Part shown: piece by piece, positions 12,368 through 49,697 of the stretch | Numbering within the stretch: the first letter of the stretch is position 1 | How the letters are laid out: each line of letters begins with the position of its first letter | Source: a virus | DNA length: 64,000 nt | IMG/VR virus record: IMGVR_UViG_3300025697_000014 | Coordinates: 20,952 to 84,951 of that record | Strand: one strand, 5' to 3' | Notes under the pieces: generated by a model | The model's database searches: none | What the model was told of the DNA's origin: nothing | Seen by the model: only the letters and a program-made list of their open reading frames with translations | Made by a program: the position numbers and the translations under genes

Positions 12368-13902
12368 GTCTTTTGATCTCCTTTGTTACTGCCCATATGA
12401 TTTGAATCCCTTGATGCAAGCTCTCCAGAGGAACCAGTGCCGCCAAAGGCGGGACCAGGTTGTCCTTCAATTTCCTGCACCTGTTTCTTCCATGTCTTTA
12501 TTCTACTCAATTCTGCGGAAACGTCAATGATACCACCTAACATTGTTATTGCGGTCTCAGGTGACAGTATATCTGCTTGCACTCTGTTGATAACAGAAGT
12601 CACCTCTTCTAGAACATCACGCGGCATCATGGGGTACCAACCTACTCGTACCTTGGCATTCTTTGCCATATCAGTTGTGATACCGTACATATCTTTGTCA
12701 GCTGCTATGAATAGCATTGTCTTACATATCTTTGCTATAGCAGTTGTGAATGCGGAGCGTTCTTCTCCTATGTGTTTGACGAGGGGAATGGCGCGTAGGG
12801 CCAGTGACGCTGCGCTACGTTGTGAACCATCGTCGTCACCAAATACTACTGGTGGACAGTATGCTTCTGATCGTGCAATGTCTCGTAGGCTATAGACATA
12901 CTGGCCAGCGCTTTGTGCTGAAGAGCCTCTGTTGGGTGGATAGATTACCTTTGGTTCTCTGTTACCCTGAGCGAAGCCAAGGTCTATAACGGGCTTCACG
13001 CCACTGATACGCTTTACCTCTGCATTACGTACGTTGGTGAGCGCAGGCATGTTCGTTGCCTCTTCAGAGACGATGTCTCCTACATCTACCAAGCGGGCGT
13101 TGATTTCCTTGGACATCTCCCACTTGTTCTTCAGGAGACTCGTACCATAGAAGCCGCGCCTGGGTGGATGCGGTATATAGACATAGGGTATCCGGTGAGC
13201 AATTGGTGCACCCTCAGCCTTGCTGGCATACCAGGTTACTGTCTTGTTGTCTACACTGATCCTGTACTTGCCCTCTGTCCAATCTTCTACGTATAGCCCG
13301 ATATCGCTGTCGATCTCGACTCCTAGATCCCTAGCTTGGATCTTAGAAATCCCGTAGGCAACAATGACCTGAAGCATACGATCTAGGTTGTTGTGGCTCC
13401 AGACAGGGTTGAAATACTTGGGGTTCACTGTCTGTAGAGCAACGGGAATCTGGAAATCAACCGCACGCTCTGGTACATAGAACGCTCCTAGAGTACAACC
13501 ACCGTAGATCTGACTGTCGAGTGCGGCAACAGACAGCTTGCTGCGACTATCGTTCTCTTCCCAGATTGTGCGCAGAAACTGTGTCATCTTGTCAGCGGCG
13601 TTCATGGCAACATCGGTAGTGGCCTTAGCACCATTCTTCCATACCTCTACAGTAGGATCAACAGAAGATAGCGCTCCATCAGGCACCTCACCAAACAAGA
13701 AGGCTGTATGCATCACAGTAGGTAGCTCAAACACGTTATACCCAAGAGGGTACATCAATGTATCAGAACGTTCTGATACCGTCTCCCTCAACCAACTTCC
13801 GCTGAAATGCTCCTCATACTCTCGATAGTATGCCATCTGTCGATCCCAGTCGATGTATGGATAGCCTTCATTGCTTCCCAACACCTGATTTAATAGTATC
13901 AT
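12364..13902 (-). CDS. Portal protein
   Basis: 512 aa after TerL; IPYVYIP...FYGTSLL, SQRSAASL, W.PMMPRD and ILSPETAI motifs of SPP1-like portals. Confidence 0.8.
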   Translation of the reverse strand: MILLNQVLGSNEGYPYIDWDRQMAYYREYEEHFSGSWLRETVSERSDTLMYPLGYNVFELPTVMHTAFLFGEVPDGALSSVDPTVEVWKNGAKATTDVAMNAADKMTQFLRTIWEENDSRSKLSVAALDSQIYGGCTLGAFYVPERAVDFQIPVALQTVNPKYFNPVWSHNNLDRMLQVIVAYGISKIQARDLGVEIDSDIGLYVEDWTEGKYRISVDNKTVTWYASKAEGAPIAHRIPYVYIPHPPRRGFYGTSLLKNKWEMSKEINARLVDVGDIVSEEATNMPALTNVRNAEVKRISGVKPVIDLGFAQGNREPKVIYPPNRGSSAQSAGQYVYSLRDIARSEAYCPPVVFGDDDGSQRSAASLALRAIPLVKHIGEERSAFTTAIAKICKTMLFIAADKDMYGITTDMAKNAKVRVGWYPMMPRDVLEEVTSVINRVQADILSPETAITMLGGIIDVSAELSRIKTWKKQVQEIEGQPGPAFGGTGSSGELASRDSNHMGSNKGDQKT

Positions 13903-15521
13903 TGTATTGACCTCACTGAAGATCTCCTGTTGTTGATAATGCGTCCCCTAGACAACCTGCTGACCTCGCGTACCTCACCCTCGTCCAGATCCGTCGTCTC
14001 ACCTTCAACGAGGGGTAGAGTCTGATTCAGGATATACCCGATTATGAAGAGACAAGATGCGATGTCCTGGCGAAGCTGCTTGTCTGGCATGTGCCACATA
14101 AGTAGCTGGTTCCACACACTGTAGAGAGATTTGGGTATTTGGACAAACCCGCGCCCCATGAGAACCTTGAGACAGAGTACCATGTGCATCTTGAGTCCAC
14201 TCATATTGATTGGTGACCATAGACGGTCCTGATTCAAGACCGCAAGATCATCAAAGGCCTTCTGGGTACCCGTAGCATCAAAGCCAGCATAGTACGGGTT
14301 GTATTCCGTATAAGCAGCTTCCATTGCATTCAGGAATGGCCAGTATGAGCCATAGCCGTATACCCATTTGAATGATGCGAGAGTTGCGGGTTGCTTGGGG
14401 AAGTCGGTAACGTCAAACACCATAACTACCCCGCTATTGCGGTAGGGCGGGTTGCCCTGGCCAGGATCTCCAGCAAGGATGTAAAGATGTCCTCTCTGTG
14501 CTGGTAGTGACCATGTGACGGCCCCGGTGTTGGTAGCAGACTCCAGGAAGTATCCCGGCATACCAGCTGCGAGTGCGTCATTCATGATGGCATCTAGGCC
14601 ATCGCTCTGAGACATAACGATCAGATTCTGTGTGAACTCCTTACCCTTCGGAAGCGGGCGAACGGAGTGCATCAAACGCTGGGCCTCGTCCTTATCCCTA
14701 AACCTACGCTTGATATCACGCAAACTCTTCTCAGTCAGGTAAGGATTGTCATAGGAAGTAAGTAGTAGAGCTAGTCGTTCTGGATCAGCCTCGTAGTCAT
14801 CATACGTCTCCCACAATACAGGATTGTACGCACTGTTGGCCATAAGGACCATCTTACCCAAACGTGCTCTTCCACCGATCTGACCACGCAAACGAGTACC
14901 AAGGTTACCCATCACAGTTTCTAGGTCGATGGACTGGTCCTCTGCCTGGTCAACAACAGCCATGTCACCACTCCAGGTCATGATACCGCTAGCGTCACGG
15001 TCAATGGATTTGAACTCCATCGTAGAGCCGTTAACGAACTCTATCATAGGTTGGGGGCGCATACGAACATTCTTGATCCACTTGGTGATCCTGCGCTCGG
15101 CACCGAGATTATTGTCCCAGTCTATTGCGAATTGCAAGAACTCTCTGTATGAGAGGTCTGCCTGCCAGGACTTGGGGGCAGTACCGAGATAGCGAAAGTT
15201 TGGTAGCATACAGCATAGGTATCCCGCCACAAGAACCATGTTCAATGTTTTACCACATCCAATCGCGCCAATCATGATGATGTCAGAGTGGCCATCGAAT
15301 ACGATATCACTTGCCCATGGAAGCGGTTGAACAGGAACGAACTGCCCCTGGAGTAGAGGTGATGGAAACTTATCAGATGCAATACCAATCAGATCGGTAC
15401 GTGCATCCTTCTCTAGTCCTCCTATAGGAGCGCTCCAGAACTGCCAAAAGAGATCGATACCACCAGTCTCTCTTGACCGCGAAAGCTCCATAATCTCCAG
15501 TTCGATCTCTGATAAAAACAT
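13899..15521 (-). CDS. terL: Terminase large subunit
   Basis: Walker A GAIGCGKT, Walker B AVVDQAE, SYDNPYL; nuclease acidic residues GDPG, FDATG and QD. Confidence 0.9.
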   Translation of the reverse strand: MFLSEIELEIMELSRSRETGGIDLFWQFWSAPIGGLEKDARTDLIGIASDKFPSPLLQGQFVPVQPLPWASDIVFDGHSDIIMIGAIGCGKTLNMVLVAGYLCCMLPNFRYLGTAPKSWQADLSYREFLQFAIDWDNNLGAERRITKWIKNVRMRPQPMIEFVNGSTMEFKSIDRDASGIMTWSGDMAVVDQAEDQSIDLETVMGNLGTRLRGQIGGRARLGKMVLMANSAYNPVLWETYDDYEADPERLALLLTSYDNPYLTEKSLRDIKRRFRDKDEAQRLMHSVRPLPKGKEFTQNLIVMSQSDGLDAIMNDALAAGMPGYFLESATNTGAVTWSLPAQRGHLYILAGDPGQGNPPYRNSGVVMVFDVTDFPKQPATLASFKWVYGYGSYWPFLNAMEAAYTEYNPYYAGFDATGTQKAFDDLAVLNQDRLWSPINMSGLKMHMVLCLKVLMGRGFVQIPKSLYSVWNQLLMWHMPDKQLRQDIASCLFIIGYILNQTLPLVEGETTDLDEGEVREVSRLSRGRIINNRRSSVRSIQ

Positions 15522-48000: not shown

Positions 48001-48074
48001 GCGTCTATAGCTCAATCGGATAGAGCCCCTGCCTTCTAAGCAGGTGGTTGCTGGTTCAAGTCCAGCTAGGCGCT
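48001..48074 (+). tRNA. tRNA-Arg(TCT)
   Basis: Acceptor GCGTCTA/TAGGCGC, D arm GCTC/GAGC, anticodon arm CCTGC-CTTCTAA-GCAGG, T arm GCTGG-TTCAAGT-CCAGC; CCA not encoded. Confidence 0.93.
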
Positions 48075-48808
48075 CTGAGTCTGAAACCGGGCATTCCCGG
48101 GTAGTAGGACTCATCCGGGGTTGTGGGATGAAAACGAGCGAGAAGGCCTCCAAACAAATAACAGGCCTCAAACACTCGTCAATTCCCACAATCCCATCAG
48201 CTGACCCGGCACGTCCGGGCGCAGTAACACCGCCGTCCTCAAGGACGTAGGTAGTCAAGGGGAGGAGCTACGATGGTCGTAGACTATCGTCCCAACCCGC
48301 CCAGAGATTGGTGCGGTGATGCTCTAGTAAATGATCGGGCCAAATCTGCGGTAAGAAGCACCTTGCATGAGCGGCAGATGAACCGGGGGAGCTTGCCCGA
48401 TCAGATCCAAACCCTAATACCATAAGGAGATATACATGACGATTGAAGAAGCACTGGTGGAGTATGAGTCACGGCTGGTAATTGCTACGATACTATCGGA
48501 ACGCAAGGAAGGCGGGAAGGAAGGGCTGACCGCTGAAGATATTAGCAATAAGCGTAAGGCTCTCATCTCAGCTATTGACGAGGAGCAATGTGGGTGGGCT
48601 GAGTGGGTTGAGGAGTTGTCAGGAGGATCGTAATGGACTCTTTGCTGATATTAGCCATTGGTCTGGGCGCAACTAGTATTTCTCTACTGGTATATGCAGT
48701 GGCATACGGTATAGGATTTTGCCGGGGCGCTGAGAACGCAACTGACTTCTACAAGAAACTTCATCGGTAACATATGTAAATAATGGCACACAATTTCGAT
48801 ACTTTGCT

Positions 48809-49164: not shown

Positions 49165-49238
49165 GCTCCGCGTGGTCTAATGGCTAAGACAATTGCTTTG
49201 TACGCAGTGGATTCCTGGTTCGAGTCCAGGCCGGAGCT
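49165..49238 (+). tRNA. tRNA-Thr(TGT)
   Basis: Acceptor GCTCCG(C)G/CCGGAGC, D arm GTCT/AGAC, anticodon arm ATTGC-TTTGTAC-GCAGT, T arm CCTGG-TTCGAGT-CCAGG. Confidence 0.82.
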
Positions 49239-49326
49239 TTGGGTGGTCTGATAAACCACCACTTGTTAGATTCACGGAGTTGGGAGATCTCCGTCATCAA
49301 AACTCCCATAACCTTTCTGCGCACAA

Positions 49327-49449
49327 GGGGGTGAACTGAATCGATTCGGTGCCAAGATTACCGGGGAGACAGAAAAAGCCCTTCGCAAAGACTGTCCATG
49401 ATCCAGTAGTGCAACATTGAAGACGCGGGTTCATTGCCCGCCACCTCCA
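49327..49449 (+). ncRNA. Minimal tmRNA-like RNA (tRNA-like domain only)
   Basis: 5' GGGGGTGAACTGAATCGA; 3' GACGCGGGTTCATTGCCCGCCACCTCCA; G3.U70 pair and A73. Confidence 0.75.
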
Positions 49450-49697
49450 CATCATTATACCAAAGGAGATACCATGAGTGAACACGAAATTCTAACATAC
49501 TCGACCTATCAAGTACGTGCACGCCGAGAGTCTCGTCTGATCCCCGGCGTGAAGGTTAACGTTGATATTGGTATACGATGTCCGCGCTGTGACAAGATAG
49601 GAGACAACATCGAACATCTAGAAACAAGGACCTGTGCCTGCGGTCTTATCATGGAACGCCGTGGCAATGCTCTATATATCAGCGAAGAGGAATAACT

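Follow-up and report, generated by a model that had tools for sequence, protein, structure and literature searches.

A phage-encoded 123-nt tmRNA-like RNA with an extended helix 2, a conserved apical loop and a non-canonical elbow

Introduction

Trans-translation is the main bacterial pathway for ribosome rescue and protein tagging, and it is a drug target. In this study, we analyzed a gene for a short RNA related to transfer-messenger RNA (tmRNA), hereafter the mini-tmRNA, which occupies positions 49327-49449 (+ strand, 123 nt) of a 64,000-nt stretch of viral DNA. This stretch, referred to as the window, corresponds to bases 20952-84951 of the 84,951-bp IMG/VR virus record IMGVR_UViG_3300025697_000014, which has direct terminal repeats and a completeness rating of 100%.

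The published record of comparable phage RNAs comprises one “TLD only” tmRNA, TLD standing for tRNA-like domain, and one inhibition experiment. Mycobacterium phage DS6A was listed with a “(TLD only)” tmRNA (PMC4131195), and strong inhibition of tmRNA by a similar molecule was reported in E. coli (PMC4131195 and PMC11915505, both citing Mao 2009). A 2025 database paper counted 79 phage tmRNAs, reported 9 “standard, no CDS” (coding sequence) sequences, and repeated the DS6A result (PMC11915505). The same paper described mitochondrial tmRNAs without an mRNA-like domain (MLD), which occur alongside imported SmpB and presumably assist when mRNAs are incomplete. Canonical D-loop and T-loop features are stated to be required for SmpB binding in a review citing Barends 2002 (PMC3968760).

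The DS6A RNA was located at JN698994 28478-28560 (tmRNA Website tmID 11587). Both it and the window RNA are phage-encoded and join tmRNA 5' and 3' ends contiguously, with a G3.U70-type acceptor, a stemless D-loop and a T arm forming a complete TLD without a tag CDS; both also score below the Rfam cut-off (34.7 bits for DS6A, 28-36.5 bits for the window). The DS6A RNA differs in its length of 80-83 nt, a short hairpin directly on helix 2a, a canonical TTCGATT T-loop and the lack of an apical-loop module, whereas the window RNA has 123 nt, a helix 2b, a conserved internal loop, a 5-bp stem with a 19-nt loop, and no A58. This kind of RNA is known through DS6A; what is new here is the extended helix 2 capped by a conserved loop. 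Standard tmRNA (RF00023) shares with the window RNA the acceptor stem, the UCGA...GAC junction, helix 2a and the T stem, but the window RNA, at 123 nt, has no resume codon, no stop frame and none of the pseudoknots PK1-PK4. Jakobid and oomycete mitochondrial tmRNAs and the ~65-bp plastid tmRNAs, as PMC11915505 describes them, are alike in having a TLD without a tag frame and differ in being organellar and usually permuted or much shorter. Literature searches turned up no account of a wider phage mini-tmRNA family; the nine “standard, no CDS” sequences, which belong to the supplements of PMC11915505, may include relatives of the Candidate Phyla Radiation (CPR) minis or of the other minis described below.

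Results and Discussion

Comparative evidence for the RNA and its structure

The original prediction, made from the sequence alone, had described a mini-tmRNA with an alanine-identity TLD and had expected the Rfam tmRNA model to match both ends around a large interior deletion, as it did. RF00023 model positions 1-374 aligned to 49327-49452, with both termini matched and 278 interior positions replaced by 38 nt, scoring 28 bits (E 1.2e-9) when 401 nt were searched; across the whole 84,951-bp genome, where it was the sole match, the score was 36.5 bits (E 1.5e-14). At the window, ARAGORN called only tRNA-Arg(TCT) and tRNA-Thr(TGT), and no tmRNA. Folding of the single sequence recovered the proposed helices with a statistically unremarkable z of -1.73; the evidence beyond chance is therefore comparative.

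The closest relative was the same RNA at L271:9966-10088, on a 35-kb IMG/VR contig, with 98 of 123 bases identical. It was found via a pattern without the acceptor stem, built on the hint of a diverged copy in salt-lake contigs. Scanning viral sequences with the exact loop pattern returned L271 and four chance matches that have no TLD, and a pattern of the lineage's 5' part returned L271 alone. When 10 kb of the window was compared with the 12-kb L271 locus by BLASTN, similarity was confined to 49324-49450 (79.5%, 127 nt), stopping within 3 nt of the predicted RNA ends between unrelated flanks, and the proteins of the two contigs showed weak similarity for just one unrelated open reading frame (ORF). 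Eighteen of the 25 differing positions lie in stems and touch 12 pairs: 5 were double compensatory, 5 one-sided and pair-keeping, 1 a mismatch repair and 1 a double pair-breaking change. The original prediction had named close relatives with a full tmRNA and no helix-2 covariation as one of the findings that would speak against it; L271 is itself a short form, and its helix 2 covaries.

A clade of seven sequences was aligned, comprising the window, L271, the metagenome contigs L075 and L037, and the Anaerolineae metagenome-assembled genomes (MAGs) L153, L172 and L215. The drawn structure paired 97.0% of cells, against 48.7-54.7% with slid partners, and both-sided changes occurred in 14 of 29 pairs, a number reached by 0 of 500 shuffles. 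RNAalifold independently predicted the same five helices from this alignment. Under our model R1, clade members scored 118-136 bits and a wider set of minis 35-73 bits, the window being a seed member whose own R1 score is not independent. The locus is a structured RNA gene under purifying selection and not a one-off deletion.

The elements drawn in the original prediction (acceptor, D-loop, helix 2a, GAC, T arm, helix 2 and 19-nt loop) were confirmed at all of their coordinates, and every element lies on the + strand. The acceptor 5' strand GGGGGTG (49327-49333), invariant in the clade, contains G3 at 49329 and faces CACCTCC with the discriminator A73 (49442-49449; U70 at 49446, A73 at 49449); CAT comes next, CCA being unencoded. 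This stem gives G3.U70 with A73, as proposed for alanine identity, and is identical to that of L271 at 14 of 14 bases, with covariation at acceptor positions 5-7 in the wider mini family. The stemless D-loop analogue AACTGAATCGA (49334-49344) differs from L271 at 1 of 11 bases and retains TCGA.

Helix 2a pairs TTCGGTG (49345-49351) with CATTGAA (49415-49421) and shows double changes in 4 of 7 pairs across the clade. It is followed by an internal loop of CCAAG (49352-49356; 0/5 different from L271, kept in 5 of 7 clade members) and GCAA (49411-49414; 0/4 different). Helix 2b, formed by ATTACCGG (49357-49364) and CCAGTAGT (49403-49410), is supported by pairing in both the clade and L271, with two double compensatory changes against L271 and double changes in 4 of the 5 lower pairs in the clade. 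A second internal loop, of the junctions GGA (49365-49367; 0/3 different from L271) and CATGAT (49397-49402, 3' side; 1/6 different), has G40, A41, A72, G74 and A75 (RNA numbering) invariant in the clade. The GA of GGA and the GA of 49400-49401 may form tandem G.A pairs in a kink-turn-like motif; an alternative pairing 40-73 offered by RNAalifold fits equally well. The apical stem of GACAG (49368-49372) and CTGTC (49392-49396) is likewise supported by clade and L271 pairing (100% of clade cells paired, two double compensatory changes against L271), and it closes the 19-nt apical loop AAAAAGCCCTTCGCAAAGA (49373-49391), which differs from L271 at 1 of 19 bases.

The GAC linker (49422-49424) is invariant in all alignments and unchanged in L271 (0/3); GAC was a fixed part of the search pattern for most aligned rows, and L271, which came from another pattern, has it too. 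The predicted T arm (49425-49441) stood in its stem and not in its loop: GCGGG/CCCGC covaries, with one double change against L271 and double changes in 3 of 5 pairs in the clade, while the loop TTCATTG is non-canonical, carrying U instead of A at position 58 and departing from the tRNA/tmRNA consensus.

Tag reading frame and pseudoknots

A frame from GCA (49385) to TGA runs through 11 sense codons (AKTVHDPVVQH) in the window, and its sole in-frame TGA lies in the 3' strand of helix 2a. In L271, CACCGGA replaces CATTGAA and the frame continues without a stop before the RNA 3' end; L037, L172 and L215 also lack an in-frame stop, while L075 and L153 do reach a TGA. Substitutions between the window and L271 obey the logic of base pairs and not of codons. 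Since the stop is unconserved and the substitutions follow base-pairing, the aligned sequences indicate that the RNA has no conserved reading frame, and the short tag ORF was rejected. Pseudoknots PK1-PK4 were not found in the interior, which has only 77 nt. A PK1-like pairing of the loop core with upstream sequence was also considered and dropped, as it was not enriched (9/42 against 7/42 in the control). The structural description of a tmRNA-derived TLD without tag ORF or pseudoknots therefore held.

The wider mini-tmRNA family and the apical-loop motif

A class pattern of tmRNA-like termini placed 60-90 nt apart yielded 18 viral, at least 120 metagenome and at least 120 genome loci. Most of the metagenome and genome loci listed turned out to be the 3' portions of ordinary tmRNAs preceded by a fortuitous 5' match, and these were discarded. 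When 7/7 acceptor pairing was demanded of the 216 unique sequences among the matches listed, 138 failed and 78 passed; removal of the residual false minis L057, L061, L194, L224 and L240, and of L161 and L114 by eye, left 71 minis with lengths of 107-137 nt, of which 12 are viral, 44 come from metagenomes and 15 from genomes. The excluded metagenome locus L114:761-881 has a duplicated tmRNA 3' fragment at its start and a second at its end, resembling an integration-site duplication. From the false matches, 118 full-length tmRNAs were rebuilt; they measured 340-389 nt and ARAGORN found tags in 109, in agreement with the normal size of about 350 nt with a tag given in the original prediction. 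ARAGORN called none of 15 viral mini loci tested a tmRNA.

De novo motif discovery in 65 non-redundant mini interiors returned AAAAGGCCCTTGCAAA with a log-likelihood of 153.7, against 49-60 in five shuffled sets. In clear cases the motif sits in the loop of the apical hairpin, and its position weight matrix (PWM) scored 13.0 bits in the window and 13.9 bits in L271. The mini class as represented by R1 consists of helix 2a, helix 2b and an apical hairpin with AAAA-N-GCCC-..-GCAAA, all of which the window RNA possesses. Other 105-137-nt minis, among them L075, L037, L007, L027, L153, L172 and L215, share the window architecture and the motif; unlike the window RNA, they have a canonical GG D-loop and a TTC[G/A]A T-loop, and several exceed the Rfam cut-off (54-67 bits).

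The PWM was also applied to 101 non-redundant full-length tmRNAs, where its best start fell between -35 and +9 of the resume codon in 71; the best scores were no better than those of shuffles (mean 5.85 vs 5.49), and the position alone was non-random. The sequence of the apical loop thus resembles, and may be homologous to, the A-rich segment between PK1 and the resume codon. The claim that the RNA is without an MLD stood as regards the tag frame and needed qualification as regards this loop.

Three further minis of ~80 nt (L003:5806-5886, L017:4141-4220 and L032:690-768) fall in the DS6A size class. Upstream of each lies a GC-rich hairpin, and it was the likeness of the hairpin's 5' arm to the 5' end of a tmRNA that let the longer pattern pick these minis up.

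Distribution in phages and bacteria

Many minis of 105-137 nt bear the motif; they come from phages and metagenomes and, in a few cases, from bacteria. In four other viral records, a mini was the only tmRNA-like match (54-67 bits). Some minis lie in bacterial chromosomes with a full-length tmRNA elsewhere in the genome, and in each of three Anaerolineae genomes a mini (59-65 bits) accompanies a full-length tmRNA (127-144 bits). The mini is sporadic in bacteria, since an R1 survey of 150 other genomes of the class, with strict filters and 23 candidates scored per genome, gave 0 matches at E <= 1e-8; the one match among all 151 genomes was the query genome itself.

Two incomplete CPR/Patescibacteria genomes (0.6 and 0.4 Mb) each had a 136-137-nt mini as their sole RF00023 match over the cut-off, namely L266 (G004:C18:7163-7299, 68 bits) and L267 (G005:C35:12715-12850, 53 bits). 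SmpB was not found in these two incomplete genomes. The tag-less form may be the sole tmRNA of those bacteria.

Next to the minis of L153 and L172, an orthologous 174-aa HNH endonuclease (L153:3664-4188, - strand; L172:2755-3279, + strand; 81% identical) follows directly. In both MAGs, a normal 423-424-nt tmRNA is present elsewhere and chromosomal genes (UvrA, histidine kinase) flank the mini; mini and endonuclease may form a small mobile cassette. HNH linkage was rejected as a general feature of minis, being merely domain-level in L271 and 12 kb distant in the window phage.

Proposed function and alternative readings

Our reading, put forward with less than even confidence, is that the mini-tmRNA is an alanine-chargeable competitor of host tmRNA that is unable to tag. 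For its processing, charging, partners and effect we infer the following course. The RNA would be transcribed together with the flanking + strand genes and adjacent tRNAs, host enzymes that process tRNAs would cut its ends at 49327 and 49449, a host enzyme would add CCA, and host alanyl-tRNA synthetase (AlaRS) would charge it with alanine. It would then compete with host tmRNA for AlaRS, elongation factor Tu (EF-Tu), SmpB and the empty A site of stalled ribosomes. Having neither a reading frame nor a stop codon, the RNA could add no degradation tag, and the net effect would be that host trans-translation is damped or diverted during infection. The position of the gene, 88 nt past a same-strand tRNA gene, supports this reading. 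No smpB was found in the phage genome; any SmpB partner must therefore come from the host.

Several observations weigh against competition with host tmRNA. The window RNA falls below the RF00023 gathering score of 47 bits and is missing from a gathering-threshold scan, and an RF00023 profile search of the L271 record yielded no candidate; standard tmRNA annotation therefore overlooks members with degenerate T-loops. The T-loop is unconserved even between the two closest copies, 4 of 7 positions differing (TTCATTG vs CTCGCTA in L271) and only loop positions 2, 3 and 6 being common. A58 is absent from the window lineage, although all 71 other minis examined have TTC[G/A]A in the T-loop, a result obtained with a class pattern that left those two T-loop positions free. 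The D-loop of the window has TG where the other aligned minis have GG. A single close relative was found, and conclusions specific to this lineage are based on two sequences. Adjacency to tRNA genes is not general, as 2 of 15 other viral mini loci had a tRNA in the flanks examined. Finally, a pure SmpB sponge would need neither a conserved apical loop nor G3.U70.

The comparison of the two copies suggests that the window lineage retains the acceptor stem, T stem, UCGA/GAC junction, helix 2 and apical loop around an elbow that is not canonical. The loss of A58 and of the D-loop GG weakens a simple SmpB-decoy reading. The SmpB decoy proposed in the original prediction, which cited no precedent, has one in the DS6A “TLD only” RNA as listed in PMC4131195; this lineage, however, has lost the canonical D-loop and T-loop features. 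Conservation of G3.U70 and of the apical loop points beyond a passive titration of SmpB, and the degenerate elbow argues against canonical ribosome entry.

A rather unlikely alternative is tag-free rescue, which the original prediction had also proposed. The alanylated RNA, with host SmpB and EF-Tu, would enter a stalled ribosome and accept the nascent chain, its loop docking at or close to the vacant mRNA channel. The complex would then be resolved by an alternative rescue factor or a release factor, so that ribosomes are freed during infection and phage proteins left unmarked for degradation. The strict conservation of G3.U70/A73 and of the entire acceptor, neither needed by a passive sponge, fits this, as do the conserved apical loop, whose motif lies close to the resume codon, within a 45-nt stretch, in 71 of the 101 full-length tmRNAs, and the CPR genomes in which a mini is the only RF00023 match over the cut-off. 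The mitochondrial MLD-less tmRNAs with imported SmpB, as PMC11915505 presents them, point the same way. However, the RNA has no stop codon and no known release route, the CPR genomes are incomplete and SmpB was not found there, the degenerate elbow opposes canonical A-site entry, and the PWM scores in full-length tmRNAs do not exceed those of shuffles.

A broader form of tag-free rescue, which we hold to be similarly doubtful, is that the 105-137-nt minis are a distinct, mobile class of tmRNA paralogues acting on stalled ribosomes, with the loop at the vacant mRNA channel, in tag-free rescue or parking and not in simple SmpB titration. If so, helix 2 and a possibly kinked hairpin bearing a loop like the pre-resume segment, with no frame to read after it, would be its defining module. 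The range of the class would take in phages, scattered bacterial chromosomes and perhaps some CPR bacteria that have no other tmRNA. The elbow would have become dispensable in the window lineage, and its mode of action would be independent of canonical SmpB/TLD recognition.

It is unlikely that the RNA works without SmpB, as an alanine minihelix presenting a loop. In one version it would be a decoy or sink, and its target a host factor (an anti-phage RNase, AlaRS or a tRNA-dependent transferase) that attacks or uses RNAs resembling tRNA or tmRNA; in another it would be a guide, binding a further RNA or protein through the loop. The nuclease-decoy idea of the original prediction fits here. The loss or variability of elbow features, with the acceptor, T stem, junctions and apical loop kept, would suit such a role, and an RNA ligase gene directly upstream of the mini in L052 hints at a setting of RNA damage and repair. 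Retention of the UCGA/GAC junction, which is typical of an SmpB-bound domain, speaks against it, as do the canonical T-loops throughout the family (71/71); the ligase link is a single case. The ligase gene in question (L052:1208-2551, + strand) encodes a 447-aa RNA ligase-type protein (PF09414 with a PHA02142 oligonucleotide-binding (OB) fold), and the mini lies at L052:2726-2843.

That the locus is what remains of a captured tmRNA gene or of an attachment site, decaying and without function, is very improbable. A sub-cut-off Rfam score and a degenerate T-loop and D-loop are what decay would leave, but compensatory changes and a near-invariant loop are common to two otherwise unrelated phage contigs; unlike an attachment site, the locus has both domain halves, and an integrase was not found in the phage. 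Least credible of all is a minimal coding tmRNA that resumes at GCA (49385) and adds the 11-codon non-degron tag AKTVHDPVVQH up to the TGA in helix 2a, since that frame, though open in the window and closed by a TGA in L075 and L153, crosses three helices, has lost its stop in L271, L037, L172 and L215, and changes as base-pairing dictates.

The minis are minimal derivatives of tmRNA that occur in nature, have a conserved loop and are clearly under selection for structure. They could serve as probes for which parts of tmRNA serve charging, SmpB binding and entry into stalled ribosomes, for a role of the pre-resume segment itself, and for why phages tamper with rescue and tagging. The window lineage provides a natural separation-of-function variant, in which alanine identity is retained and the elbow is degenerate.

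Genomic setting

All genes around the mini-tmRNA lie on the + strand. Upstream are tRNA-Arg(TCT) at 48001-48075 and tRNA-Thr(TGT) at 49165-49238, both called by ARAGORN and Rfam on the same strand as the mini-tmRNA, the latter ending 88 nt before it. The next protein gene (49475-49695, + strand) starts 25 nt past the RNA, with its ATG at 49475 behind AAAGGAG. CCA is encoded by none of the three tRNA-type genes of the phage (the two tRNAs and the mini-tmRNA). No promoter-like or terminator-like sites were found on the + strand near the mini-tmRNA gene.

Neither the locus nor the surrounding 20 kb matched any INPHARED phage at the DNA level, the DUF1599-like neighbor protein led to no relatives, and the window ORFs did not match L002-L019. 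A 540-aa protein (13899-15521), which by its position is probably the terminase, retrieved only three short contigs, and the RNA region was absent from all three.

Salt-lake metagenome runs contain the same phage sequence, with no RNA run among those listed for it, and the covered parts of four salt-lake DNA runs showed zero base differences within the mini-tmRNA. In run X13, also a salt-lake metagenome, fragments of a third, diverged copy of the RNA aligned to window positions 49322-49353 and 49411-49450; the consensus of their loose ends retained the 3' part of the loop and a CATGAT-like junction, with altered stems. The 88-nt spacer between tRNA-Thr and the mini-tmRNA (49239-49326) contains two hairpins, at ~49241-49262 and 49279-49308, the second of which gave a chance match to a miRNA family; these hairpins may be processing or termination signals.

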